In this document: positions 4,421 to 57,616 of the stretch, in pieces
Layout of the letters: the number at the start of each line of letters is the position of its first letter
Numbering within the stretch: the stretch's first letter is position 1
Assembly: GCA_014161675.1 (NCBI GenBank)
Contig: GCA_014161675.1_4760.1
Origin: a phage
Direction: 5' to 3' (one strand)
DNA: 64,000 nucleotides
The notes under the pieces: model-generated
Told to the model about the DNA's origin: nothing
Databases searched by the model: none
What the model saw: only the letters and a program-made list of their open reading frames with translations
Program-made: the position numbers and the translations under genes

Positions 4421-7400
4421 TTAAAGCGCCTAGTGTAACTAGCTTGACAATAGAAAAATTGTCTGCTAATCAGGCGTATATCACATGGGATGACGTAGGC
4501 GAAAACTTCTTTTATTTTGTGGAGTTAGCCGAAACCAGAACACGAGACGGGGAGATCATCCCCGTCGATGAGTTAAGCTGGGTAAACCTGGGATATACTG
4601 CCGACCAAAACTGGTTTGAGGATAAAAACCTTTTTCCAGAATATTATTACAAGTTTCGTGTAGCAGTAGCCGCAGAAGGATTTGAACAAAGTAAATGGGT
4701 TGAAACAGAAGAGTTTCAGACATTTAAAACAAACGCATATAATTTTTCTATGATGCGAGAGTTCAACCTTGCAAACGAGTTTATAAAGGAAAAATTTACA
4801 TACGATAATCGAGAGTATGTCAAGTTTAATACTGACCTGATTCAAGCATCATTAATGAAGGAAGATTTTGTCTTTAGTCCTGAATATGCAAACATGACAA
4901 ATATCTCAAACTACATTGTAGTGGATGAGAACTTTCATGAAATACAGGATCACATAGAAAAAGTTTGTACTGATATAAACCGCACTATGTTAGCGGAAAT
5001 GAACGGTGTTTTGTACCTTTTCGAACGGTTCCAGCCGATCGTGAAAGTGTCAAATGATAAAGGCCAATCATGGAAAGCATACAAGGCTTTTAATGACCGT
5101 GTAGGCAATCCGGTTTCCCGTACATGCGTTTATCAGTCTAAAACCACTACTTACGTTTTAGGATATGACCGAATCTTTTACGGACGACAAGCGAGCGATA
5201 CTCGATGGAGCGCGGACGATGTTCGATTTAGTGATGATACGATCACTTTTGCAAAGGTCGGTGACGAAAACGATTTAGGCTTTGACGTTGAGGTCTTTGG
5301 TGTATTTTCCAGATTAACAGGTGATACCACAAAATACGCCGAAGCTATGGCGTGTAGTGATGACTATTTGTGGGTTGGTGCTAAAGATGTTATTCGCAGG
5401 ATTCGTCTTAAGAATACTCCTGTTGATACCGTACAGGGTTCGCCTACGTTTGGAGAAAAAATATTCGATCCTGATGTTATCCGAGTAACAGGAAATGATA
5501 AAGCTGTCATTCAGAAAATGGATGTGATCGACGGTAAATTGCTTGTATTTGTTACGGGTGAAGTTAAACAGCGTTATCAAGATCCAACTAAACCAGAAAA
5601 CGTTGTTCCGTCAGATGATGCGGGTGTATACTTAATAGGGAGTGATGGTCTGTCTTTTCAGAGAGTATTTGGCAACACTCCGCAGGAAAGGGAATATATT
5701 CAGCATGGGTTCAGTAATATGTCAACCAATGGTGATGAGGTGTTCATAAGCCATTATAATCATCACTTCGAAAGCATTTTACCTGATCCAGAAACTGCCG
5801 AGAAATATGAATTGGGCGAAGCTGTAAAATATTCTCAGGAGCCAACTTATCTAACTGATAAGAAAATACATCAAACTACTTTCAGAGCAAGTTATGATGA
5901 TTTGCGTATTTGGGAGTTAGGACCGCAAGCGTATTATAACGAGGCTGATTATACATGGATGCGTCGAAACGGTGTCCGTGTGTGGATCACAAATGATAAT
6001 CGCCCGTTGGTTGTTTATCCAGAGGTTATCTATACTCAAGAAGTTGATACGTCTGGCATTCTTGACCAAAATAGGGTCAACCGAGAAGTTTATGATAAAG
6101 GGACCGTGACCTGTTATCTTAACAATGTTAAATTTGAAGGATTCAAACAATATGCATCCGGTGTAATGTTCCATAAAAACACAGGAGAGATCATAGGATT
6201 CTATCAATTTAATTATCGTGTTCGTGATCAGGTTGGTGTATATTGGAAACCTACAAATGTAGCATTTGTTGCTGAATTGCAAAATCAGGTTCGAGAGGTT
6301 CCCTGGGTTCCGGTTCACTACGATCGAGAGCAAGATCCAGATTTGCGGCCTTTACTGAATAAGATGACCCCTGATAGCTTTTTACTTGAGAACGAAAATT
6401 TCAGAAAATTCTCTGAATATTATCTGCAATTCTTAAGCGATGGTTCAGGAACATATTATAATAAACTAAAAAATCTGATTAAAAACAAATATCCACGCGA
6501 GAAAGATGCATATGAGTATCTTTGGTCAGAGATGAACAAACGAAACATCTATGCAGATAAAAACAAGCGAGATGCGGTAGTAAGATTCTTTGAATCCCGC
6601 AAATCAGATTTTTATTCCACTAAGGGCGTGGAGGCTTCTTATAAGTTCTTGTTTAAGTTACTTTATAATGAAGATGTGGAAATTGAGGTTGAATCACAAG
6701 CCGGACTAGAGTATGATATTGTTGTTAGTTCAACGAACATTGACGAGGATATCGTAGGTCGCACGATTTATACTCCAACCGGACGGGCTAACGTGACGTA
6801 TCTTGAAAGGGAATATGAAGGTGGTCGCCTACGCTGGCGAGTAACCATTCATAACCTGATCGGGCGGTTCGAAGAAGGTCAAGTGATCAAATCAGAGAAA
6901 ACAGCGTTTGAAGGGATGATCCTTGTTGGTGTACGTGGTAAAGAGTTGTTGAGTAGTTCAATCGACTATATCAACCGCTCACGAAGCCAATACACCATGA
7001 AGATTAAAAGTGCATTGCCAGTTTCGCGCTATGCAAATGATGTAATGCGATTCGTTCATCCTGTCGGCTTTGGGTTTATCGGTGTTACCCTGCTTACAAT
7101 GTTCATTAACAGCGGGTTAAGCATGAAGCACACCGAGACTATAATTCAATCTCTGAAAAATTATAAGTTTGACAGCGGATTGCCTAGCGTGTATCCTGAT
7201 CGGGTGGCAGACCTTGACGTTGACGGAAACATTAAGAAAGACCCGCTTACCGGAAAAGCATTATATTTGACTTCACCTTTAATTGGTGAAGAATTTCCGG
7301 TTCCTCCTGAATATGATCAGGAGAACAGCGAATTGTTCCACGGACTTAAAGCAAGCGAACGAAGATTTGCAATGAGTCCACTGTTTGACCAGTCGGCGGT

Positions 7401-7503: not shown

Positions 7504-8491
7504 TGAAAATAGTGTGATCTATCGCTCAATCATTACTAGTAAATTCAGAACGGAAAAACTTCTGAATTTCTATAATTCTGTAGGCGATGAGGCAAATCAA
7601 ATTACAATTTATGGAACGTTTGGACGTTCGGAGCCGTGGTCAGAAAACGAAAAAGAGGTGGGCTTTGCCCCACCTTATCCGACCGATTCAACGGCTGGTG
7701 TTGTTGACATGTGGACCCATATGATGGGGGCGGTTAAGATTAACAAATCACTTCTTGATGCGGTTATCCCTCGTAAAGATTGGGGTGATACCGGACAGGA
7801 TAACCCGCGCACATTCTTTATCAATGACATTGTTGTTGTCAACTCAGCACCATATAACAGAACTGATGTTGGTAGCGGCTGGATGGTGTATCGCGTAACC
7901 GATGTTCCTGATCGCGGTTACTGCTCGATTTCAAGCATTGACGCTAAAGTAGAGTGTTTGAAGTTGGGCGGAAAGTGGACCCCCACTCATGAATCAATTG
8001 CGCCACCTGTAGGAAAGGGCGATTCTATTGATATGGGTGATGGGTATCGTTGGGAATATCTGTACACAATTCCACCTGATGCGGCGATCAACCGTTGCAC
8101 CAATGAACATATTGTTGTACCGTTCCCCGATGAACTGCGACAAGATCCGGCGCGTTGGGGTTATGACAATGTGATCACCTGGTATAATGACTATAATCTG
8201 CTTTATCGGCTGAAAGTAGTAACTTTGCGTTTTCAGGCTTATATGGACTCTGCGCAATTCCCAACTACCGCGTTAGTGGGTAATACTGGTTTCCGTCAGT
8301 TAAGCATTATCCTTAACCCATTGGAAAAGAAAGCACGCCCTAGCGATCCAGACGTTAAAGCGGTCAAAGATAAGTACCGACCGCAAGACTTAGAGCCACA
8401 CTCAGGCGAAATGATCTACATGGAAAACCGACAACCTATCGTTCGGTCATTAGATCAAACAGAACTTGTTTCTGTATTGTTTGAGTTCTAA
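7496..8491 (+). CDS. 8: gp8 baseplate wedge protein
   Basis: 331 aa (T4 about 334); synteny. Confidence 0.8.
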   Translation: MANENSVIYRSIITSKFRTEKLLNFYNSVGDEANQITIYGTFGRSEPWSENEKEVGFAPPYPTDSTAGVVDMWTHMMGAVKINKSLLDAVIPRKDWGDTGQDNPRTFFINDIVVVNSAPYNRTDVGSGWMVYRVTDVPDRGYCSISSIDAKVECLKLGGKWTPTHESIAPPVGKGDSIDMGDGYRWEYLYTIPPDAAINRCTNEHIVVPFPDELRQDPARWGYDNVITWYNDYNLLYRLKVVTLRFQAYMDSAQFPTTALVGNTGFRQLSIILNPLEKKARPSDPDVKAVKDKYRPQDLEPHSGEMIYMENRQPIVRSLDQTELVSVLFEF

Positions 8492-47001: not shown

Positions 47002-47485
47002 ATTTTGCTAAATCATTGCAATATTTTAGTGCCTTAGTTTGAAATTCTGCGCTGTTAAGTTCTTCATAACGGTCATAATCACCGTTTAATGCTGCCTTTC
47101 TTGCTTCTTGCTCTATCTGCATGTCAGACATGATAATACAGCGATCCCGTGCTTTCATCTTCTCAAGTTGTATAGACTCTTCTTTCTGCTTGCGCAATTC
47201 TTCTTGACGCTTCTTTTCTTCTTGTGCTTTCTCTTCCCGCGCTTCTTTGATTGCATCCTTGAACATCTGCGTTTGTGGTTCTAAACCAACTTTAACGCGA
47301 TCCACGTCTCGACGTTCCATTTTAGAAATAAAGCACGATTCGATCTGATCATCACTTGCATATGCTGCTTTACATTCACGAAGCAAGAAAACCGGATCTG
47401 ATTTAGCATTCATCATAGCTTCCATGTTGGCACAACCAGTAAGCATGAATGCAGCCGCAAGACCAATCAGTTTAATCATTTTCAT
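47000..47485 (-). CDS. predicted lipoprotein
   Basis: Signal peptide with lipobox 'LTGC'; charged helical region; last gene of the alt operon. Confidence 0.55.
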   Translation of the reverse strand: MKMIKLIGLAAAFMLTGCANMEAMMNAKSDPVFLLRECKAAYASDDQIESCFISKMERRDVDRVKVGLEPQTQMFKDAIKEAREEKAQEEKKRQEELRKQKEESIQLEKMKARDRCIIMSDMQIEQEARKAALNGDYDRYEELNSAEFQTKALKYCNDLAK

Positions 47486-48306
47486 TTAGTCACCTCACCG
47501 AAAATTGTAAATTGTCTACGATTCTCATCACCGAAAGATTCTACTACGTCGTTTACCTTGACGCAAGTCCCGCGCGGTAAAATTACTTCACATTCGCAAG
47601 GATTCCATGCAATTGACCCAACAACAAAACCTTTATGATCTTTTACGTCAATTACCCATGATACATTACAAGAATGTTGCATCTTTCCGGTCATTGATTC
47701 ATATCGATTCTCACAATAAAGGCTAGTGCTGTTTGATAACCATCCTCCAAAGATGATCGGTGTCATGCTGGTAGATACAAAGTTTTTAAAGGTAAACTCC
47801 TTATCTTCAATGATACGCTCTATTGTCTGAATGTCAAGATGTTGACCGCGATAAAGAGTACCGTTTAACTTTTCGGTTTTATCCATGACGCAATCCATCA
47901 AATCGACAATCTCTGATATCTCATCGGTCATGTCTTCTTCCCCTAAGAGAGCACCATTTACCCATTCGTATTGCTCAGACACATAATCACAGATTGCATT
48001 ATATTCTGCTGGGGTTATGTTGTTATGTTTGTAATGTTTGAATACATTATCTCCAAAGTCTTCGGAGTGTACTTCATACATCACATTAATGATTTTCTTG
48101 ACAAATCCATAATCTTGTGTCTCACGCTCAAGGAAGCGGATAACCTTCACATAATCATCAAAGTTAATCTGATCGCTGATCATCTCAGTGATCATGTAAC
48201 CATTAATACCCTCAATGTCATATGTTTCGATGTAATTATCCATACGTTCCATCATTGATTCGCGTGATTCTTCCGAAAGACGAAAATCCTGTAATTTCTT
48301 GAACAT
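47482..48306 (-). CDS. ADP-ribosyltransferase, Alt-like paralog (R-S-E class)
   Basis: 'LYRGQ', 'FVSTS', 'CECEVILPRG' (R, STS, ExE motifs); shares 'IFGGW' with Alt; GGGAGG RBS. Confidence 0.7.
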   Translation of the reverse strand: MFKKLQDFRLSEESRESMMERMDNYIETYDIEGINGYMITEMISDQINFDDYVKVIRFLERETQDYGFVKKIINVMYEVHSEDFGDNVFKHYKHNNITPAEYNAICDYVSEQYEWVNGALLGEEDMTDEISEIVDLMDCVMDKTEKLNGTLYRGQHLDIQTIERIIEDKEFTFKNFVSTSMTPIIFGGWLSNSTSLYCENRYESMTGKMQHSCNVSWVIDVKDHKGFVVGSIAWNPCECEVILPRGTCVKVNDVVESFGDENRRQFTIFGEVTK

Positions 48307-48385: not shown

Positions 48386-50437
48386 TTACATTTTAAATTT
48401 ATCTGGCATTGCGTCTACAGATACCAGATCAGCGATAAGCTGACGTAGAGTTGCCTTATCTGCTTTCTTACGTTCGGTTTTAGCTTCGCTAATGAAGCTG
48501 GAGAAAGACAGGTCAGAAGCAGGTTTAATAACACCTTCACGGATGAATGCATCACCGTCCGCGATCATCTCGCCAGATTCTTGTAATGCTGCCAGTTCAT
48601 TTTTGTTCATAATATGTGCCTCAATGTAATAAGTTTCTTGTGAATCCGTCGATGCCGTAGCACGAGTTACCGTATCAAAGGATAACACAACACCGCGAGG
48701 AAGTAAAATCTCGCATTCTTTGTAAGCAAATGCTTTGTTACCTACTGGCAATACAGGGATGTTTTCCGCGCCAGCAATGGAGAAAGCAACATTAGCGCCA
48801 CCTTCACCGCGAGAGCCAGCCATAGAGTCAACACCAGCAACGGCACTAGCCACGTTTGCATTCCAGCCGCCAAAAATGTTAGGTGCAAGGGAAGTGCTCA
48901 CATAGTTTTTAAAGTAAAACGCTTTTTGCTTACGTGCAGTTTCCCACATTTGCGACCGGAAGTCCATACCACGATACAGAATAGTACCCGGATCAAGTTT
49001 AACGCCATAGTTGGAGAAGGCATTATCCAGTGCATCGCACATCTTGACCAATTCTTCTGGATCTGCGATGCCTTCAAACTCTTCCAGCTTACGGTCGGTT
49101 AGGAAGTTGTTCATATTGATGTATGCTGCATCGGCATATTCGCTCAACACAAAACCTTCCGCGCCTGGCAGATCAAGATCAATATCTGCCATCATTTCAC
49201 CCATGTTGCTAGCAATTGCTTCAAACATACCGGAGGCAACATTACGTAGGGCATCGGTTTTAATCTGGGTGATATGACTACGCAGCATTTCAGCTTTTAC
49301 ATCTGCTGGCATAGACTGGTCTACTCGATCCATTGCCAGGGCGGTGATCTTGTTTTCGAATACTTCCTCGCTCATGATTTCTTTTAAGCGTTTGACCGAG
49401 GCTGCGATAACTTCCGCAGACAATGGATCATATTGATCCTGAACTTTTACCAGTTCGCTTACTGCGTATTTTGCATCGGCTTCGCTTTCAAAAATAGTAC
49501 GCATGAAACCATAGCGAGTGATAATATCACTTGTCCAGTCATTCAGAGAACGAGCGGTTGAACGTTCTAAGGCTTGACGGTCAATCAGAGTATTAAACTG
49601 TTTCTTAGGTTCTGCTTCGGTGATATCTTCTTCCGGTTTAAGATTAATTTTTTCTGGATGATTCACATAGTCGCTGTTATAGGTCGCTTGAGTTTTCAGC
49701 ATTTCTTCTTTAGTCAAACGAGATTTAGCCGCTACGCGTTGTTCTGCTTCCGCGTTTCGTTCTTCTTCTGACACAAGACTAGCCGCATATGCCTCATCTT
49801 TAGTCAGAGATTCACCAGTAGCCTTAGATACCCAGCGATCACCTAAATCACTTTCTACTTTAGTGAACAAGGATTCATCAAGTTTAATCCCTTTAATCTT
49901 ATCAATCGCCATCCCGCGACGCTTGACAACAACTAAAGCGATCTTTTTGCTGGTCATTACTTCCTGCTGGAATACTTCAAACTTCGGTGTACGACGCACC
50001 AAACGCTCTATAACGCGCTTAACCAGTTCGGTCTTACCTTTCATGCGGGATACGTTAAAACGGAACATAACAGCGTCTAATTGCGCTTTACGGGCTGTTT
50101 CCATAACCACATCAAAAGCACTTGACATAACTGCAATCGGGTTATCGCCTAGACCATTTTTAAGCTGTACAATACGACCGCTTTTGTTCATTTCGCACAG
50201 TACAACATGTGCGGTCTTGTCACCCATACGAATGATTTTAGGTGTTTTGTTGGTGAAGTTACAAAGACGGACAATCACATCTTTATCGCGTGTCTGTACT
50301 GCAAAAAGCTGTTTAGGATTCTGCTTAGGCTTTAAGCACTGTACCGGAGCAATCCTGCCAAAGTTTTCTTCCTCTTCCGTCAACAGCCATTTCTCGAAAG
50401 ATTCAATCATTAGATCGTCGATTTCTAAGTTAAACAT
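48386..50437 (-). CDS. alt: Alt ADP-ribosyltransferase
   Basis: 683 aa (T4 Alt 682); 'ILYRGM', 'YVSTS', 'ECEILLPRG'. Confidence 0.8.
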   Translation of the reverse strand: MFNLEIDDLMIESFEKWLLTEEEENFGRIAPVQCLKPKQNPKQLFAVQTRDKDVIVRLCNFTNKTPKIIRMGDKTAHVVLCEMNKSGRIVQLKNGLGDNPIAVMSSAFDVVMETARKAQLDAVMFRFNVSRMKGKTELVKRVIERLVRRTPKFEVFQQEVMTSKKIALVVVKRRGMAIDKIKGIKLDESLFTKVESDLGDRWVSKATGESLTKDEAYAASLVSEEERNAEAEQRVAAKSRLTKEEMLKTQATYNSDYVNHPEKINLKPEEDITEAEPKKQFNTLIDRQALERSTARSLNDWTSDIITRYGFMRTIFESEADAKYAVSELVKVQDQYDPLSAEVIAASVKRLKEIMSEEVFENKITALAMDRVDQSMPADVKAEMLRSHITQIKTDALRNVASGMFEAIASNMGEMMADIDLDLPGAEGFVLSEYADAAYINMNNFLTDRKLEEFEGIADPEELVKMCDALDNAFSNYGVKLDPGTILYRGMDFRSQMWETARKQKAFYFKNYVSTSLAPNIFGGWNANVASAVAGVDSMAGSRGEGGANVAFSIAGAENIPVLPVGNKAFAYKECEILLPRGVVLSFDTVTRATASTDSQETYYIEAHIMNKNELAALQESGEMIADGDAFIREGVIKPASDLSFSSFISEAKTERKKADKATLRQLIADLVSVDAMPDKFKM

Positions 50438-50483
50438 TTTATATCCTCTAGTTGATAACCTATAAACCTATATTTATGAAAAA

Positions 50484-50498
50484 GGGGCTTAACGCCCC
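50484..50498 (-). terminator. Terminator hairpin (minus strand)
   Basis: GGGGC-ttaac-GCCCC; U-run on the minus strand; downstream of ORF 50508-50720. Confidence 0.45.
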
Positions 50499-50507
50499 CC
50501 CCATTTA

Positions 50508-52848: not shown

Positions 52849-53096
52849 GCTGCCCCCATTGGTTTGATAGTAACAGAATCTAAAAGACCTTTGTTAGCCA
52901 GTTCGCGGCAAGTTTTCAGATCCGCAACTTCCCAGCCAGCCGCAATCAGGTTATCAATCAGGCTGTTAGCAACTTCTTCGCTCATGAAAGAGCACTGTTT
53001 GCCGATGGTGTAGCGTACACGCTGTAATTTCAGTTTACGGAAGCCTTTAACGTTCAGGTCTTTAGCGATTTTCTTTGCGGTTTCGATGTTAGCCAT
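52845..53096 (-). CDS. hypothetical protein
   Basis: 83-aa ORF, first gene behind promoter unit 3. Confidence 0.5.
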   Translation of the reverse strand: MANIETAKKIAKDLNVKGFRKLKLQRVRYTIGKQCSFMSEEVANSLIDNLIAAGWEVADLKTCRELANKGLLDSVTIKPMGAA

Positions 53097-53136
53097 TGTT
53101 TGATTCTCCTAAGTGGTATCTCGTCTTGATGGTTGT

Positions 53137-53165
53137 ATTGTAGGGGAGTTATCCTCCCCTGTCAA
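53137..53165 (-). promoter_or_regulatory. Early promoter unit 3 with palindromic spacer
   Basis: TTGACA, spacer GGGGAGGATAACTCCCC (17-bp palindrome), TACAAT. Confidence 0.55.
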
Positions 53166-53179
53166 CACTTTTTATAAAA

Positions 53180-53347
53180 TTATTTGTTAATTTCTGGTGC
53201 GTTGCTAGGATAGTAACCTTCTTTAACTCCGAGGTATTTCGCAACCATCCCTACAATCTTCTGTGCTACTACAATGTCAAATTTCAGATAATCTTCGCCG
53301 TGGGTTTCAATGATATATGCTTCACATGCTGCTTTAGTCTCGAACAT
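53180..53347 (-). CDS. small early protein (55 aa), paralog of 56438-56605
   Basis: 'MFETKAACEAYIIETHGEDYLKFDIVVAQKIVGMVAKYLGVKEGYYPSNAPEINK'; below the ORF-track cutoff. Confidence 0.55.
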   Translation of the reverse strand: MFETKAACEAYIIETHGEDYLKFDIVVAQKIVGMVAKYLGVKEGYYPSNAPEINK

Positions 53348-53380
53348 TTTGATTCTCCTATTTCGTTTCGGTATGTGTGT

Positions 53381-53409
53381 ATTATAGGGGATCTCCTGAT
53401 CCCCGTCAA
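53381..53409 (-). promoter_or_regulatory. Early promoter unit 4
   Basis: TTGACG, palindromic spacer GGGGATCAGGAGATCCC, TATAAT. Confidence 0.5.
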
Positions 53410-53423
53410 CAACTTTTTTAAAA

Positions 53424-53705
53424 TTATTCGTGATTAGTTTCGATGTTGTGCATTTTGCACCAGTTCAGCCAATCACCCAGATCCTGATAGCTAATGCTTT
53501 TATCTGCTGCCATCGTTTTTGTCTTGATACCCATATGTGCGTTATGAGTAAGCATTTTTACAGTGAACTCAATTTTATCACCTTTAGCTTTAACATCAAC
53601 CAGTTTGGTCCACTGGCTACCAGCGCCGCGAATGTTCATACCAACGATGTTTCCGATGTATGCTTCTTTGTTTTTCAGGATTTCGGTTGCTTTGATGAAT
53701 TTCAT
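53424..53705 (-). CDS. hypothetical early protein
   Basis: 93-aa ORF behind promoter unit 5. Confidence 0.5.
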   Translation of the reverse strand: MKFIKATEILKNKEAYIGNIVGMNIRGAGSQWTKLVDVKAKGDKIEFTVKMLTHNAHMGIKTKTMAADKSISYQDLGDWLNWCKMHNIETNHE

Positions 53706-53738
53706 TTTTGATTCTCCAGTTCGTTTCGGTATGTGTGT

Positions 53739-53768
53739 ATTATGCTATGTTCTTACTTTGGTGTCAAC
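53739..53768 (-). promoter_or_regulatory. Early promoter unit 5
   Basis: TTGACA, about 18 bp, CATAAT, conserved leader ACACACATACCGAAACGAACTGGAGAATC. Confidence 0.5.
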
Positions 53769-53775
53769 AACTTTT

Positions 53776-54045
53776 TTAGATATTTTCAGAAATAAATTTT
53801 AAAACTTGACGTAAATGTTTCTCATCTTTGATGGTAGCCGGAAGTTCTTCTTTTACTTCCTGTGCAAGATAGATATTTCCGTTCCAAGTGAAAGATCCGT
53901 CTTCGTTTACGCGATAGCTGAACATCCACTCGCAATCATTTTCGATTTCATATACACACAGAAGGGTGTAATCGTTAAAGCTATTGATTTCAAGGTCGAA
54001 GCCGTGACGTTTTGCAAAGTTGGTAGTGGTTTTAGTCAGTGTCAT
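53776..54045 (-). CDS. hypothetical early protein
   Basis: 89-aa ORF behind promoter unit 6. Confidence 0.5.
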   Translation of the reverse strand: MTLTKTTTNFAKRHGFDLEINSFNDYTLLCVYEIENDCEWMFSYRVNEDGSFTWNGNIYLAQEVKEELPATIKDEKHLRQVLKFISENI

Positions 54046-54085
54046 TGTTTGATTCTCCTAAGTGGTATCTCGTTTCGATGTGTGT

Positions 54086-54114
54086 ATTATGCTATAGGCC
54101 GGATCTGGTGTCAA
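54086..54114 (-). promoter_or_regulatory. Early promoter unit 6
   Basis: TTGACA, 17 bp, CATAAT. Confidence 0.5.
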
Positions 54115-54170
54115 CAACTTTTTTAAAAATTTGGGCAATAAAAAGCCGACACTAAGGTCGGCTAATAAAA

Positions 54171-54479
54171 TCATTTAGACAAATAATCATTCTGTGCAAT
54201 CCGGTCAGCATGTTCCGGCGTTACGTCAATCGCAATCACTTTAACGCGTGCTTTCTTGCGACCTGGGTTTTCTCGTAACCAGTGCTCATGACCGTGAACA
54301 TTTTTATACTGCGATGCTTCTTCGAAGGTACGGATCGGACCTGGGTAATCAGCGTAAAGGATCTCTAGATCTTCGGTGATGTAAAAATATACATCGTAAT
54401 TGCTGTTCTCTAGCTTAAGCAGAGACTTTCGGAACATTGGGAGATTTTCGCGGGTAAATTCAAAGATATTATCTTTCAT
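54171..54479 (-). CDS. HxHW-family small protein (paralog 1)
   Basis: 'FYITEDLEI...HGHEHWL...VIAIDV'; GAGGATAA RBS. Confidence 0.55.
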   Translation of the reverse strand: MKDNIFEFTRENLPMFRKSLLKLENSNYDVYFYITEDLEILYADYPGPIRTFEEASQYKNVHGHEHWLRENPGRKKARVKVIAIDVTPEHADRIAQNDYLSK

Positions 54480-54507
54480 AGTATTATCCTCAATAGTTGG
54501 ATGAAAA

Positions 54508-54524
54508 GGGGGCTTAACGCCCCC
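54508..54524 (-). terminator. Terminator hairpin (minus strand)
   Basis: GGGGGC-ttaac-GCCCCC; same core as hairpins at 16583 and 50484. Confidence 0.4.
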
Positions 54525-54529
54525 ATATA

Positions 54530-54817
54530 TTAAAACAGCCCTTCCTGTACACCGTAGTAGAGTTCGTCACTGATAATTTCATTAATGCGACGGTGTGCAT
54601 ATTCCTGATTTGCGAAGTTGTCAGCAAGTTCTACTTTAGTTTCGCCGTCATGAGTCCATTTAGTGATAACTTTACCATCTGCAAATTTGAAGTTGAACTC
54701 TTTAGCTACTGCATCGCGTACCAGACGTGCGAACTTGTTGTTACGGATTGCATTGTCTGTTTCGTTTGCAGCGTGAGCAAATTTGTTAACTTTCAGAGTG
54801 ATAGTAATGTATGCCAT
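54530..54817 (-). CDS. hypothetical early protein
   Basis: 95-aa ORF behind promoter unit 7. Confidence 0.5.
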   Translation of the reverse strand: MAYITITLKVNKFAHAANETDNAIRNNKFARLVRDAVAKEFNFKFADGKVITKWTHDGETKVELADNFANQEYAHRRINEIISDELYYGVQEGLF

Positions 54818-54863
54818 AATTTGATTCTCCTAGTTAGAAAGTGTATATCGTTTCGATGGGGAT

Positions 54864-54892
54864 ATTATGCTATATCCCCGATCCGGTGTCAA
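54864..54892 (-). promoter_or_regulatory. Early promoter unit 7
   Basis: TTGACA, 17 bp, CATAAT; inverted repeat GGGGATAT/ATATCCCC spans the -10. Confidence 0.5.
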
Positions 54893-54898
54893 CACTTT

Positions 54899-55192
54899 TT
54901 ATAAAATAATTTTTTGATATTTTTCTATGATGTTCGTGTAAGTCACATCAACCGCTAGCACCGTTGCTTCGAATCCACCGTTTAGCCAATGGCTATGATC
55001 ATGATCGTGAAAGAAACCTAGACCAGTACGAAGACCTTCTTTATATTCTGCGCGTACATTCAGTTTGTCGTCGATAAACAGATAAAACCATGAATTTTTA
55101 CTAGGATTGATGATACAACCTTTCAGATTAGGGAGAATATCACGACTAAGAATAAACTTATCACCTACTTTGAACATAATATTAGTCCTCAC
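54899..55192 (-). CDS. HxHW-family small protein (paralog 2)
   Basis: 'FYLFIDDKLNV...HDHDHSHWL...VLAVDV'. Confidence 0.55.
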   Translation of the reverse strand: MRTNIMFKVGDKFILSRDILPNLKGCIINPSKNSWFYLFIDDKLNVRAEYKEGLRTGLGFFHDHDHSHWLNGGFEATVLAVDVTYTNIIEKYQKIIL

Positions 55193-55502
55193 TTATAAGG
55201 TCAAACCAATTGTTTTTCGCATAATGCTTAATGCGTGCTTGATCTGCTTCCGCTGGTGATAGATTCCATGCAACCACTACAACTTCTGACGCATCGTCAT
55301 CCGTTTCTGATACCCAATGATTGTGATTCATACAGTTATTTGCTATCGAGTGAGCAAATGATTTCATCACTGGAGACGTATAATCATAGTAACGGATTTT
55401 CAGATTTTCATCAACGTACAAATAGATCGTATAAGGTTTATATTCAGTAACCAGTAACAGACAGTTACGCAATTCTGGGAAAATATTTTTAGTTAATTTC
55501 AT
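55182..55502 (-). CDS. HxHW-family small protein (paralog 3)
   Basis: 'YLYVDENLKI...NHNHWV...VVVVAWNL'. Confidence 0.5.
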   Translation of the reverse strand: MKLTKNIFPELRNCLLLVTEYKPYTIYLYVDENLKIRYYDYTSPVMKSFAHSIANNCMNHNHWVSETDDDASEVVVVAWNLSPAEADQARIKHYAKNNWFDLISED

Positions 55503-55716
55503 ATTCTAGTTCTCCGTAATACACGGTAATCCATTTTTCTTCATACTTTGTATCTTTCCAACACACAATCCCGTTTACTGTGCAATCTTTGGAATTGACG
55601 AATGATTCATATTGTTCTGCATCTTCCATCATTGCATGAGCGGTCTTTTCATCGAATATATCGCAGATCGCTTTATATGCTCGATAATCTTTAAATTTGC
55701 TCATAATTAAGACCAC
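55489..55716 (-). CDS. small early protein, tandem duplicate A
   Basis: 'MSKFKDYRAYKAI...MMEDAEQ...GIVCWKDTKYEEKWI' paralogous to the adjacent ORF. Confidence 0.5.
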   Translation of the reverse strand: MVLIMSKFKDYRAYKAICDIFDEKTAHAMMEDAEQYESFVNSKDCTVNGIVCWKDTKYEEKWITVYYGELEYEIN

Positions 55717-55922
55717 TCAAGAGTTTTTGAAAACACATCTATCCATTGTTGAGTATATGCGGTTTCTTTCCATGATACAATACCAGTCGAATAATGGTTT
55801 TTGTTTCCAGAAAAGGACGGGCATTTTGAGGCATCTTCCATCATCTTTTCGGCGAACTCTGGTGCGTATACTCGCAGGATCTGTTGATATGCTTTGTATT
55901 CTTTAAATTTGCTCATAATCAT
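55707..55922 (-). CDS. small early protein, tandem duplicate B
   Basis: 'MSKFKEYKAYQQI...MMEDASK...GIVSWKETAYTQQWI'. Confidence 0.5.
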   Translation of the reverse strand: MIMSKFKEYKAYQQILRVYAPEFAEKMMEDASKCPSFSGNKNHYSTGIVSWKETAYTQQWIDVFSKTLEWS

Positions 55923-56181
55923 TCACTACCTTATCAGCTTCTTTTGTTGTTTTTACATCAACTGCGATAACTCGTAAAGGTTCGTCATGGTTCCACCAGT
56001 GGTCATGAATATCAGCTTGTGATTTATCACCAAAGGAATCACGAATATCATTTTTACATTTATAGCTAATGTGACCTTCATAGTCAACATAAAGGTAATT
56101 ATCGAAAATCGGCGTTTTTAAGATCATACCGAAAAATCTTTCTTTGTGTGTCTTATCCAGCGTTGCAGTAATTCGCATCAT
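55903..56181 (-). CDS. HxHW-family small protein (paralog 4)
   Basis: 'YLYVDYEGHI...HDHWW...VIAVDV'. Confidence 0.55.
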   Translation of the reverse strand: MMRITATLDKTHKERFFGMILKTPIFDNYLYVDYEGHISYKCKNDIRDSFGDKSQADIHDHWWNHDEPLRVIAVDVKTTKEADKVVNDYEQI

Positions 56182-56193
56182 AATATATTCCTC

Positions 56194-56373
56194 TTAGAAA
56201 GGGATGGTCATTTCTTGAGCTTGTACGTTCTCGTTAGGATTAAACTTCATCCAGCCGATATTGTCTACCAGCATATGCACATTTTTATCATATCCTACGT
56301 GGGTAGTCAATACTGTATGTGCTTTACCTTCAATGATGAGTTCCATGTACTTCTGAACTTCGATAGCTTTCAT
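56194..56373 (-). CDS. small hypothetical early protein (59 aa)
   Basis: Hand-translated 'MKAIEVQKYMELIIEGKAHTVL...'; behind promoter unit 8. Confidence 0.4.
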   Translation of the reverse strand: MKAIEVQKYMELIIEGKAHTVLTTHVGYDKNVHMLVDNIGWMKFNPNENVQAQEMTIPF

Positions 56374-56405
56374 TTTGATTCTCCGTTTGTTGTCTTGATG
56401 GGAGT

Positions 56406-56434
56406 ATCTTACTACTCCCTTTAATCATTGTCAA
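56406..56434 (-). promoter_or_regulatory. Early promoter unit 8
   Basis: TTGACA, 17-bp spacer with GGAGTA/TACTCC inverted repeat, TAAGAT. Confidence 0.45.
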
Positions 56435-56437
56435 CTA

Positions 56438-56605
56438 TTATTTGTTAATTTCTGGTGCGTTGCTCGGATAGTAACCTTCTTTAACACCCAGATATTTTGC
56501 GACCATTCCGGTGATCTTCTGTGCTACTACGATATCGAATTTCAGGTAATCTTCACCGTGGTTTGCTACAATGTATGCTTCGCATTCTGCTTTAGTCTGG
56601 AACAT
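56438..56605 (-). CDS. small early protein (55 aa), paralog of 53180-53347
   Basis: Internal ATG at 56605 gives 'MFQTKAECEAYIVANHGEDYLKFDIVVAQK...', near-identical to the 53180-53347 product. Confidence 0.55.
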   Translation of the reverse strand: MFQTKAECEAYIVANHGEDYLKFDIVVAQKITGMVAKYLGVKEGYYPSNAPEINK

Positions 56606-56638
56606 TTTTATTCTCCCATATCTCGTTGGTATGTGTGC

Positions 56639-56668
56639 ATTATAGGGGATCACCGATCCCCTGTCAAC
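56639..56668 (-). promoter_or_regulatory. Early promoter unit 9 with palindromic spacer
   Basis: TTGACA, GGGGATCGGTGATCCCC, TATAAT; spacer identical to units 2 and 10. Confidence 0.55.
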
Positions 56669-56672
56669 AACT

Positions 56673-56966
56673 TTATAATGCTTTATATGCGTATTTCATA
56701 AATTTGTCTGCCACTTCATTGGCATGTTCAGATTCTACGCCTGATTCGAGAACAATAGCTAGGTCGGTTTCGTCATTCCCGCCGTACCAATGATTTGATG
56801 TTCGATTTTTTTCAATTGGAAATTGGTCACTTTTATCTGTGCGACAAAATACATCTAAATGCTCGTCGATGTAAAAGATCCAATCTTCATAAAGAATAAC
56901 GGTATTAGCCAGATTTTTATTGCCTTCAACGAAAGGTTCGGCTACAAACAAATTAGTATGTTCCAT
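56673..56966 (-). CDS. HxHW-family small protein (paralog 5, divergent)
   Basis: 'IFYIDEHLDV...SNHWY...LAIVLESG'. Confidence 0.45.
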   Translation of the reverse strand: MEHTNLFVAEPFVEGNKNLANTVILYEDWIFYIDEHLDVFCRTDKSDQFPIEKNRTSNHWYGGNDETDLAIVLESGVESEHANEVADKFMKYAYKAL

Positions 56967-57023
56967 AGTATTTTCCTCAATTTGTGGGAGAGTATTGCCC
57001 CTCCCGATGTCTGTTATATTACA

Positions 57024-57344
57024 TTACACAAAATGGCGTTTCAATGCTTCTTTTGCGGTTCCGCTAAGACTTTCGATCTCGCCTGGCATAACATCAACTG
57101 CCAGAACTTCTACAACATCCTCTGACCCCAACCAGTGAGTATGACCTTTGTAGAACTTGATAACCAGACTACCTTCCTCATCCCATTTAACGCTATCGCT
57201 AGCCCACCACACATCACCGTCGATAAAGTTGATGTAAAGCACACTACGCCACATTGAATTAATTACTTTCAATACTGCGCCTTTCATATCTTCCACGGTG
57301 TGGTCTTCCATTTTGAAGACCTCGCCTACCTGAACTTTTGCCAT
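57024..57344 (-). CDS. HxHW-family small protein (paralog 6)
   Basis: 'LYINFIDGDV...GHTHWL...VLAVDV'. Confidence 0.55.
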   Translation of the reverse strand: MAKVQVGEVFKMEDHTVEDMKGAVLKVINSMWRSVLYINFIDGDVWWASDSVKWDEEGSLVIKFYKGHTHWLGSEDVVEVLAVDVMPGEIESLSGTAKEALKRHFV

Positions 57345-57541: not shown

Positions 57542-57575
57542 GTTTGATTCTCCTAGTTCGTTTCGGTATGTGTGT

Positions 57576-57604
57576 AGTATAGGGGATCACCGATCCCCTG
57601 TCAA
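57576..57604 (-). promoter_or_regulatory. Early promoter unit 10 with palindromic spacer
   Basis: TTGACA, GGGGATCGGTGATCCCC, TATACT; conserved leader to AGGAGAATCAAACATG. Confidence 0.55.
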
Positions 57605-57616
57605 CAACTTTTTGAA

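Follow-up and report, generated by a model that had tools for sequence, protein, structure and literature searches.

An old paralogous pair of PeSL cassettes encoding a 55-amino-acid protein in the hyperplastic region of a Krischvirus phage

Introduction

Two genes for nearly the same 55-amino-acid protein lie about 3.2 kb apart in the phage DNA analysed here (the window, 64,000 nucleotides), which raises the question of when and how a single small gene came to occupy two sites. In the initial annotation, this arrangement was attributed to a recent segmental duplication, probably mediated by repeated promoter units. The window represents a Krischvirus, i.e. an RB49/Phi1-like T4-type coliphage, with 93-97.6% nucleotide identity to 59 Krischvirus genomes, and the gene order around the pair follows Phi1 ORF185-213 gene for gene. 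This region, flanked by alt and HNH/DNA ligase, is hyperplastic and built of PeSL cassettes, which consist of a sigma70 early promoter, a G/C stem-loop and a small ORF (Arbiol et al. 2010, PMC2839356). With the exception of one methyltransferase, its 22 ORFs are designated hypothetical in Phi1, RB49 and JSE; no Pfam domains were found among the region ORFs and no Rfam families or tRNA in 50-58.5 kb. The evidence presented below makes it probable that the region is made up of 'PeSL + small ORF' cassettes in an array and that the 55-aa genes represent one such cassette, duplicated a single time prior to the divergence of the sampled Krischvirus genomes.

Results

Two intact copies of a 55-aa early gene

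The two genes are located as follows:
53180..53347, minus strand, copy A, 55-aa early gene, corresponding to Phi1/RB49 ORF191; PHROG 8009, E=7e-38
56438..56605, minus strand, copy B, 55-aa early gene, corresponding to Phi1/RB49 ORF205; PHROG 8009

Both match the PHROG 8009 profile over their full length (E about 1e-38), and the copy A protein is identical in Phi1, JSE and many Krischvirus genomes. The longest ORF of copy B starts at GTG 56653 and extends into its promoter, with the ATG at 56605 being homologous to the copy A start. As first noted, the two proteins differ at few positions, namely 6 of 55 residues (49/55 identical, 89%), and in-window blastp aligns them over 55/55 residues with E=7e-35. 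They are near-identical only as proteins, since the nucleotide repeat comprises 238 nt at just 84% identity with a spacing of 3258 nt and the coding sequences are 84.8% identical. The similarity specific to A and B runs from the ATG to the stop codon and ends 1 nt past it, hence residing in the coding sequence and not being confined to promoter or leader. Thus, the cassettes ORF191 and ORF205 are true paralogues, in the same orientation, both intact and both selected as proteins.

Each copy is preceded by its own PeSL

Four PeSLs adjoin the two copies:
53348..53423, minus strand, copy A PeSL: AT-rich region with the ORF193 stop codon, -35, stem-loop, -10 and SD GGAGAA
56606..56672, minus strand, copy B PeSL: -35 TTGACA at 56667, GGGGATCGGTGATCCCC, -10 TATAAT at 56644-56639 and SD; orthologue of Phi1 PeSL206/205
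53097..53179, minus strand, ORF190 PeSL, directly downstream of copy A; stem-loop of -19.4 kcal/mol, z=-4.9
56374..56437, minus strand, degenerate ORF204 PeSL, directly downstream of copy B; TTGACA-17-TAAGAT with a stem GGGAGTA..TACTCCC over the -10; fold of -12.2 kcal/mol, z=-3.5

The assignment of a separate promoter to each copy is borne out by TTGACG-17-TATAAT at 53409-53381 for copy A (11/12; -35 at 53409, -10 at 53386-53381) and TTGACA-17-TATAAT at 56667-56639 for copy B (12/12). Between -35 and -10 lie the stem-loops GGGGATCGGTGATCCCC in B and GGGGATCAGGAGATCCCC in A, both of -14.1 kcal/mol with z of -1.8 and -2.3, that of copy A having the form GGGGATC..GATCCCC in the promoter spacer. 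The order of elements can be read directly in the sequences, e.g. ...CACGAATAATTTTAAAAAAGTTGTTGAC...AGGAGAATCAAAATG, with near-consensus sigma70 hexamers, a 17-nt spacer and a polyG...polyC stem-loop within or next to the promoter, all located in the hyperplastic region upstream of small function-unassigned ORFs. Altogether, ten minus-strand PeSL units with a promoter match of 10-12/12 are present between 50786 and 57605, including, besides those of A and B, eight units in 50.7-57.7 kb (10-11/12, all on the minus strand), and their stem-loops range from -12 to -19 kcal/mol. Promoter-like sites overall number 29, which is not above shuffled sequences (25.1 +/- 5.5), and the sites that stand out are solely those of the minus strand with a 10-12/12 match.

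The strength of such elements has been documented in Phi1, where the PeSL206/205 promoter yielded about 13,000 Miller units of lacZ and PeSL211/210 exhibited terminator activity (PMC2839356). The A and B promoters share 77% identity, whereas each reaches 86% with other promoter units of the region; they match each other only as generic PeSLs.

Cassettes are lost and converted by exchange between PeSLs and between copies

Comparison with related genomes, proposed initially as a check for copy-number variation, showed cassette losses, and crossovers between A and B were mapped using 101 informative sites. Brandy, JK32 and UPWr_E1 are without copy A and contain one chimeric PeSL between ORF193 and ORF190, which is of P191 type through the -10 and of P190 type in the leader, identifying the ORF190 PeSL as the right-hand recombination partner in the loss of the copy A cassette. 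In Cognac and FL04, a 3.2-kb interval with 12 genes has been lost independently via two different crossovers between the cassettes, leaving the order ORF206, a single hybrid copy and ORF190. In Cognac, the hybrid copy shows B-type sites at -102 to -14 and A-type sites from -3 onwards, placing the crossover between -14 and -3; in FL04, B-type sites reach to -50 and A-type sites begin at -21, with the crossover inside the PeSL. The 3.2-kb interval is demonstrably dispensable, because these two phages lack it. In addition, a run of six A-type sites (+51 to +75) is present in copy B of Brandy, though copy A is absent from this phage, which demonstrates gene conversion. These results support PeSLs as sites of homologous exchange that remove cassettes.

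The duplication is old and confined to one ORF

Two neighbours of copy A are relevant to its origin:
53424-53705, minus strand, ORF193, with its own PeSL
53776-54045, minus strand, ORF194, with its own PeSL

Homologues of the 55-aa gene outside Krischvirus adjoin the terminase genes on the opposite strand in the siphoviruses swi2 and Sasha; in enterobacterial chromosomes, they lie next to terS at the end of a prophage, as in GCA_023349675.1 on contig ABGECA010000002.1 at about 280-297 kb. At this prophage end, the homologue of copy A adjoins homologues of ORF193 and ORF194, identified by tblastn of the window proteins (58% identity, E=1.7e-34, and 40% identity, E=4e-21, respectively). The prophage copy likewise has a promoter, TTGACA-17-TAATAT, with a GGGG..CCCC stem, and it shares the GGAGAATCAAA-ATG leader of the phage. 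In the ghrA/ycdX flank of the prophage, identity to E. coli amounts to 76-85%. The possibility that the prophage trio 191'-193'-194' is a circularly permuted version of 194-193-191 in the phage, which a mini-circle would produce, was considered and rejected, as the cyclic orders differ.

Such mobility would fit a history in which diverged alleles of a mobile gene were captured separately at different PeSLs to give A and B, copy A for instance together with ORF193/194. A mini-circle with ORFs 191-194, 'band H', is indeed known from RB49 (PMC2839356), and a metagenomic homologue, P0003, is nearer to A (83%) than to B (78%). However, A and B resemble each other (89% aa, 84.8% nt) more than either resembles any outside homologue (at most 83% aa and 76% nt), and each has its own derived residues relative to outgroups, as expected after one duplication. 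Separate capture is therefore considered unlikely, with the qualification that the sister relationship of A and B could be partly an artefact of gene conversion.

A recent duplication in this genome, in which a block of several genes was copied shortly ago, might be suggested by the 89% protein identity and the similar promoter units before both copies, yet it is highly improbable when synonymous divergence and synteny are considered. The copies occupy matching loci in RB49, JSE, Phi1 and most of the 59 related genomes, and A and B sort into distinct orthologous sets across all genomes examined, with 0-5 nucleotide differences within A, 1-9 within B and 17-27 between A and B. The dS between A and B is 0.93-1.05, i.e. 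near saturation, versus 0-0.17 among orthologues (RB49, JSE and the window), and this value may underestimate the true age of the pair because gene conversion has been demonstrated. Hence the duplication is older than the divergence of the sampled Krischvirus genomes. With dN of 0.05 and dN/dS of 0.05-0.06, both copies are kept under strong purifying selection. Neither can the event be called segmental, since a single ORF, with a generic PeSL, is common to both sites and the flanking genes are unrelated: a repeat search and all-against-all blastp detected no similarity between genes flanking A and those flanking B, and the repeat search found no other long repeat in 50-58.5 kb. That the likeness reflects only promoter or leader similarity, or chance between short ORFs, can be practically dismissed, for although promoter repeats of about 65 nt abound in the region, the whole coding sequence is similar up to its stop codon, the promoters (77%) are less alike than the coding sequences (85%), and dN/dS indicates selection on both as proteins.

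Further paralogous families in the same region

An adjacent pair of genes and a dispersed family are also present:
55489..55704, minus strand, tandem paralogue 1, Phi1 ORF201, 71 aa; PHROG 8471
55707..55916, minus strand, tandem paralogue 2, Phi1 ORF202, 69 aa; PHROG 8471
54171-54479, 54899-55177 and 55182-55502, minus strand, HxHW members, Phi1 ORF197, 199 and 200
55903-56181, 56673-56966 and 57024-57344, minus strand, HxHW members, Phi1 ORF203, 206 and 208

ORF201 and ORF202 had been regarded as adjacent, overlapping paralogues, of which the paralogy stands (43-44% aa identity over 68-69 aligned residues, E=7e-18; full-length PHROG 8471 profile matches, E about 1e-36) and the overlap does not. 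Overlap arises just with the longest ORFs (GTG 55716 and ATG 55922); using the homologous MSKFK ATGs at 55704 and 55916, as in the Phi1 annotation, there is a 2-nt gap between the end of ORF202 at 55707 and the start of ORF201 at 55704. The two genes go back to an older tandem duplication within the ORF204-199 operon, and no PeSL separates them. Among Krischvirus, ORF201 occurs as two allele classes (at least 95% and about 62% aa identity), and it is absent from JSE.

The six dispersed members of the HxHW family (54171..57344) share an invariant H-W (HxHW) motif. Their relationship is based on alignments, two pairs significant by blastp, PHROG cross-hits and a profile search that retrieves all subfamilies.

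Properties of the 55-aa protein

The 55-aa protein gave no Pfam hit, and PHROG 8009 is itself a family of unknown function. A word-indexed search returned 5 matches, two of which are fusions or truncations, HMMER against 1.84 billion representatives retrieved only three real clusters, and a scan of one genome per species gave no matches to the family. In the AF2 model (pLDDT 80.9), two helices form a hairpin and GYYPSNAPEINK is a disordered tail; Foldseek against the PDB found no match to this model (best E=4.7). We infer that the 55-aa proteins are small early host-directed binding proteins.

Discussion

An old single-cassette duplication thus remains the favoured explanation of the pair, and its likeliest copying route would be homologous recombination at PeSLs, either by excision of a mini-circle followed by re-insertion or by unequal exchange between concatemeric genomes. 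Concerning the proposed mediation by promoter units, PeSLs do recombine, as evident from the chimeric PeSL and the two deletions; their part in the original copying, which may well have used them, is argued from the parallel with the losses seen here and with the mini-circles in the literature, because that event left no diagnostic junction and neither PeSL has the other as its closest relative. Subsequently, each copy would be transcribed from its own strong early promoter, and the pair now acts as a direct repeat of roughly 240 bp that allows occasional short gene conversion and occasional deletion of the 3.2 kb, while clean loss of copy A can also occur by recombination of its two flanking PeSLs.

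The kind of genome plasticity seen at these loci is already known, and the present case is an ordinary example of it. PeSL shuffling in RB49/Phi1 (PMC2839356; Comeau et al. 2014, PMC4122927) concerns the same genus, hyperplastic region and loci, the copy B promoter being the orthologue of the tested PeSL206/205 and copy A being ORF191 of the 191-194 mini-circle. The anatomy is likewise the same (AT-rich region with upstream stop, -35, GGGG..CCCC stem, -10, SD, ATG), and, as in the published mini-circles, crossovers occur between the -10 and the ATG. However, the papers cover insertion, deletion and replacement of ORFans, and the text of the 2010 paper (PMC2839356) has no mention of ORF191/205 or ORF201/202 paralogy or of duplication as an outcome. 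Additions to this picture appear to be the role of the copies as substrate for deletion and conversion, the chimeric PeSL of Brandy, JK32 and UPWr_E1, and the neighbourhood common with the prophage.

Resemblance to morons (Hendrix et al. 2000, via PMC2839356) lies in a small, non-essential, horizontally mobile gene with its own promoter and terminator, and the swi2/Sasha homologue, next to the terminase genes and in opposite orientation, is like a classical moron; in Krischvirus, however, the regulatory unit itself is the recombination site, and the cassettes form long co-oriented arrays, not solitary insertions. In T4, exchange at short direct repeats similarly removes several small non-essential ORFs (Mosig et al. 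1998; Singer et al. 1982, via PMC2839356), phage recombination needing only about 50 bp of homology; at the present locus, a diverged paralogue together with its promoter (about 240 bp, 84%) serves as the repeat, and not a GGGC-type motif. Integron gene cassettes, an analogy drawn by Arbiol et al., share the arrays of small promoter-served cassettes and the possibility of circles, but at these loci there is no integrase and no attC, each cassette has a promoter, and recombination is homologous, not site-specific.

A more speculative reading, to which we assign a low probability, is that ORF191/205, ORF193 and ORF194 constitute a functionally linked mobile module that lytic T4-like phages exchange with temperate prophages of enterobacteria via PeSL-like cassettes, with two 55-aa copies kept for distinct targets. 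If true, the copies would be, for example, small host-takeover or anti-defence binders and not a neutral leftover.

The relevance of these findings beyond phage comparative genomics is little. For annotation, they are of value in labelling ORF191/205, ORF201/202 and the six 'HxHW' ORFs as paralogous families, and strong purifying selection on two copies makes the 55-aa early protein a reasonable candidate for functional screening. Within that field, the locus provides a clean sequence-level case of PeSL cassettes being gained and lost through homologous exchange, in which a retained paralogue pair furnishes a built-in substrate for deletion and gene conversion in a T4-type hyperplastic region.

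Organization of the small-ORF region

Window positions 53000-57000 have 59 matching phage records, which are 93-97.6% identical in nucleotides and all belong to Krischvirus (RB49/Phi1/JSE-type T4-like coliphages), with JEP8 as the best match (97.6%). In this region, 22 small ORFs are arrayed on the minus strand from about 50.5 to 57.6 kb, whose gene-for-gene counterpart is ORF185-ORF209 of Phi1. The array contains two copies of a 55-aa early gene and a tandem pair, numbered after Phi1/RB49.

48386-50437: alt, one flank of the array
53180-53347, minus strand: copy A of the 55-aa gene (ORF191)
55489-55704, minus strand: ORF201
55707-55916, minus strand: ORF202
56438-56605, minus strand: copy B of the 55-aa gene (ORF205)
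57617 onward: HNH endonuclease and gp30 DNA ligase, the other flank
-35 hexamers of promoter units, minus strand: 50785, 51032, 53165, 53409, 53767, 54114, 54892, 56434, 56667, 57604

The alt-like ADP-ribosyltransferase gene adjoins a shorter paralogue (47482-48306; 37% amino acid identity over 109 residues, E=4e-15), in agreement with the RB49 annotation "similar to C-terminal part of T4 Alt".

The ten promoter units score 10-12 out of 12 and have the same layout, comprising an AT-rich tract, (A)AGTTGTTGACA, 17 nt, TAnAAT, a leader, GGAGAATCAAA and ATG, with a GGGG...CCCC hairpin (folding energy -12 to -19 kcal/mol) within the spacer of several units. These repeated units are the already published PeSLs (promoter-early stem-loops), defined in the same hyperplastic region of Phi1 and RB49 (Arbiol et al. 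2010, PMC2839356). All structural features of the PeSL cassette are present in the window, and its functional features have been reported for these very loci: PeSL206/205, the orthologue of the copy B promoter, yielded ~13,000 Miller units, and an RB49 mini-circle with ORFs 191-194, copy A included, was sequenced (PMC2839356). Phi1 ORF210, the ORFan behind the published mini-circle experiments, and ORF207 are missing from the window (57542-57616 and 56967-57023 vs Phi1 7787-8257 and 7004-7268), and a lone PeSL (-35 at 57604) separates HNH from ORF209 at the place of PeSL-ORF210-PeSL in Phi1, a further cassette presence/absence difference. Also, a 24-nt sequence (ATGAAAA[A/G]GGGGCTTAACGCCCCC, plus strand) is present at 50476-50499 and 54501-54524 with 96% identity, one site right after ORF185 and the other right after ORF198. 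Read on the minus strand, it gives a G/C hairpin and then a run of T, resembling an intrinsic terminator, and seems to be a repeated terminator module separate from PeSLs.

Age and maintenance of the 55-aa gene duplication

The near-identity of the two small proteins, reported in the initial annotation, is confirmed, as they differ at 6 of 55 positions (E=7e-35, blastp within the window). The underlying DNA repeat spans 238 nt with 84% identity at a spacing of 3258 nt (CDS identity 84.8%), stops 1 base past the stop codon and is followed by a different PeSL in each copy, that of ORF190 after copy A and that of ORF204 after copy B. The promoter units of A and B are 77% alike vs 86% identity of each to the PeSLs of ORF186 and ORF209; hence their likeness is generic and the specific paralogy resides in the CDS. 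Alignment thus places the specific similarity in coding sequence rather than in promoter and leader only.

The inference of a recent segmental duplication was not borne out. Among copies from the window, Phi1, RB49, JSE, Cognac, FL04, Brandy, JK32 and MIZ5, differences amount to 0-5 nt within the A set, 1-9 within the B set and 17-27 between A and B. Since A vs B within one genome gives dS of 0.93-1.05 (dN 0.047-0.055, dN/dS 0.05-0.06, Nei-Gojobori) vs 0-0.17 for orthologues between species in the same set, the duplication took place before the sampled genus diverged. Each copy is maintained as a protein, and purifying selection, not youth, lies behind their protein near-identity.

Losses and exchanges among relatives

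The 55-aa family was found by tblastn at 123 places in 71 phage records, 12 of which are non-Krischvirus with one place each; the counts imply two copies in ~52 of 59 Krischvirus genomes and one in ~7. Inspected single-copy genomes exhibit three configurations. In Cognac and FL04, the order is ORF206, one copy, ORF190, with the whole 3.2-kb ORF204-ORF193 interval gone. Of the cassettes scored at 101 sites distinguishing A and B, that of Cognac proved B-type between -102 and -14 and, starting at -3, A-type except for a B-type patch covering +114 and +120, and that of FL04 was B-type up to -50 and A-type starting at -21. The deletions are two independent homologous exchanges between paralogous cassettes. 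In Brandy, JK32 and UPWr_E1, copy A is cleanly gone, and ORF190 directly follows ORF193 behind a single, chimeric PeSL, which is P191-type (ORF191 PeSL) through the -10 and 'ACACACAT' and P190-type (ORF190 PeSL) in the remainder, with the leader 'CAAGACGAGATAC...AGGAGAATCAAACAATGGCTA'. Such a product would be expected if a circle of PeSL plus ORF191 was excised by crossover between the -10 and the Shine-Dalgarno sequence, a position likewise used in published mini-circles. Brandy copy B is A-type at six consecutive sites, +51 to +75, a tract converted from a copy A that its ancestor must have had, and because of this tract the absence of copy A in these three genomes is a loss rather than an ancestral state. 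MIZ5 has a larger deletion, with ORF191 through ORF186 missing.

Because of these configurations, with hybrid copies and a chimeric PeSL, the proposal that promoter units mediated duplication holds insofar as PeSLs and paralogues are demonstrably recombination substrates; PeSLs may reasonably be supposed to have served in the original copying of the 55-aa gene as well.

The ORF201/ORF202 tandem pair

The tandem genes, initially annotated as overlapping paralogs, are paralogous (43-44% amino acid identity, E=7e-18) but do not overlap: from their homologous ATGs, also taken in the Phi1 annotation, both begin with ATTATGAGCAAATTTAAAGA and are separated by a 2-nt gap, the apparent overlap arising because longest ORFs were taken. 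True 14-nt overlaps occur in ORF203/202 and in ORF201/200. Since the interval from 56434 to 54892 is without any PeSL, ORF204-199 looks like a single operon. This duplication is older than that of A and B. JSE has only ORF202, and ORF201 is also absent from KMB43. ORF201 alleles among Krischvirus are at least 95% identical in amino acids in 22 records and ~62% in 32, including RB49 (2581-2799), with adjacent ORF202 constant at 91-98%; the variation looks like local replacement within the operon, at a junction without a PeSL.

Homologues outside Krischvirus

The family (PHROG 8009) is very small: when 1.84 billion representatives were searched exhaustively with HMMER, only three genuine clusters emerged. 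In the AF2 model (pLDDT 80.9), two helices (residues 5-16 and 18-39) form a hairpin, and after it comes a GYYPSN tail that is conserved, yet disordered; no PDB match to the model was found. The family is horizontally mobile: siphovirus homologues such as that of swi2 (~45 kb) are 70-72% identical and adjoin terL but are encoded on the other strand, those of Sasha-like phages (~40%) lie between terS and terL, and those at a prophage end (59-83%) lie next to terS (phrog_57, E=1e-18), the prophage sitting by ycdX/ghrA in an enterobacterium other than E. coli. At this prophage end, in three enterobacterial assemblies with terS nearby and the insertion adjoining truncated ycdX and ghrA, homologues of copy A, ORF193 (58% amino acid identity, E=1.7e-34) and ORF194 (40%, E=4e-21) stand side by side (L012-L014 4001-4857 and L011 3723-4165, the prophage sequences, vs window 53180-54045). 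Circular permutation of the phage order was rejected for this trio, as the gene order differs. The promoter of the prophage gene resembles a PeSL, with TTGACA-17-TAATAT, a GGGG..CCCC stem past the -10 and a GGAGAATCAAAGATG leader. As a best guess, the 55-aa proteins may be small early-expressed binders aimed at a host or defence component.

Relation to the described system

Overall, the duplicated genes were correctly observed, their interpretation was partly wrong and the system is already described. Each pair (ORF191/205 and ORF201/202) already falls within a single PHROG family, and a search of the Arbiol et al. 2010 text returned no mention of their paralogy or of duplication as an outcome. 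The additions made here are modest, comprising a relative date for the duplication, two independent inter-paralogue deletions and a chimeric PeSL from copy A loss, together with the Brandy copy B conversion tract and a gene neighbourhood common to phage and prophage.
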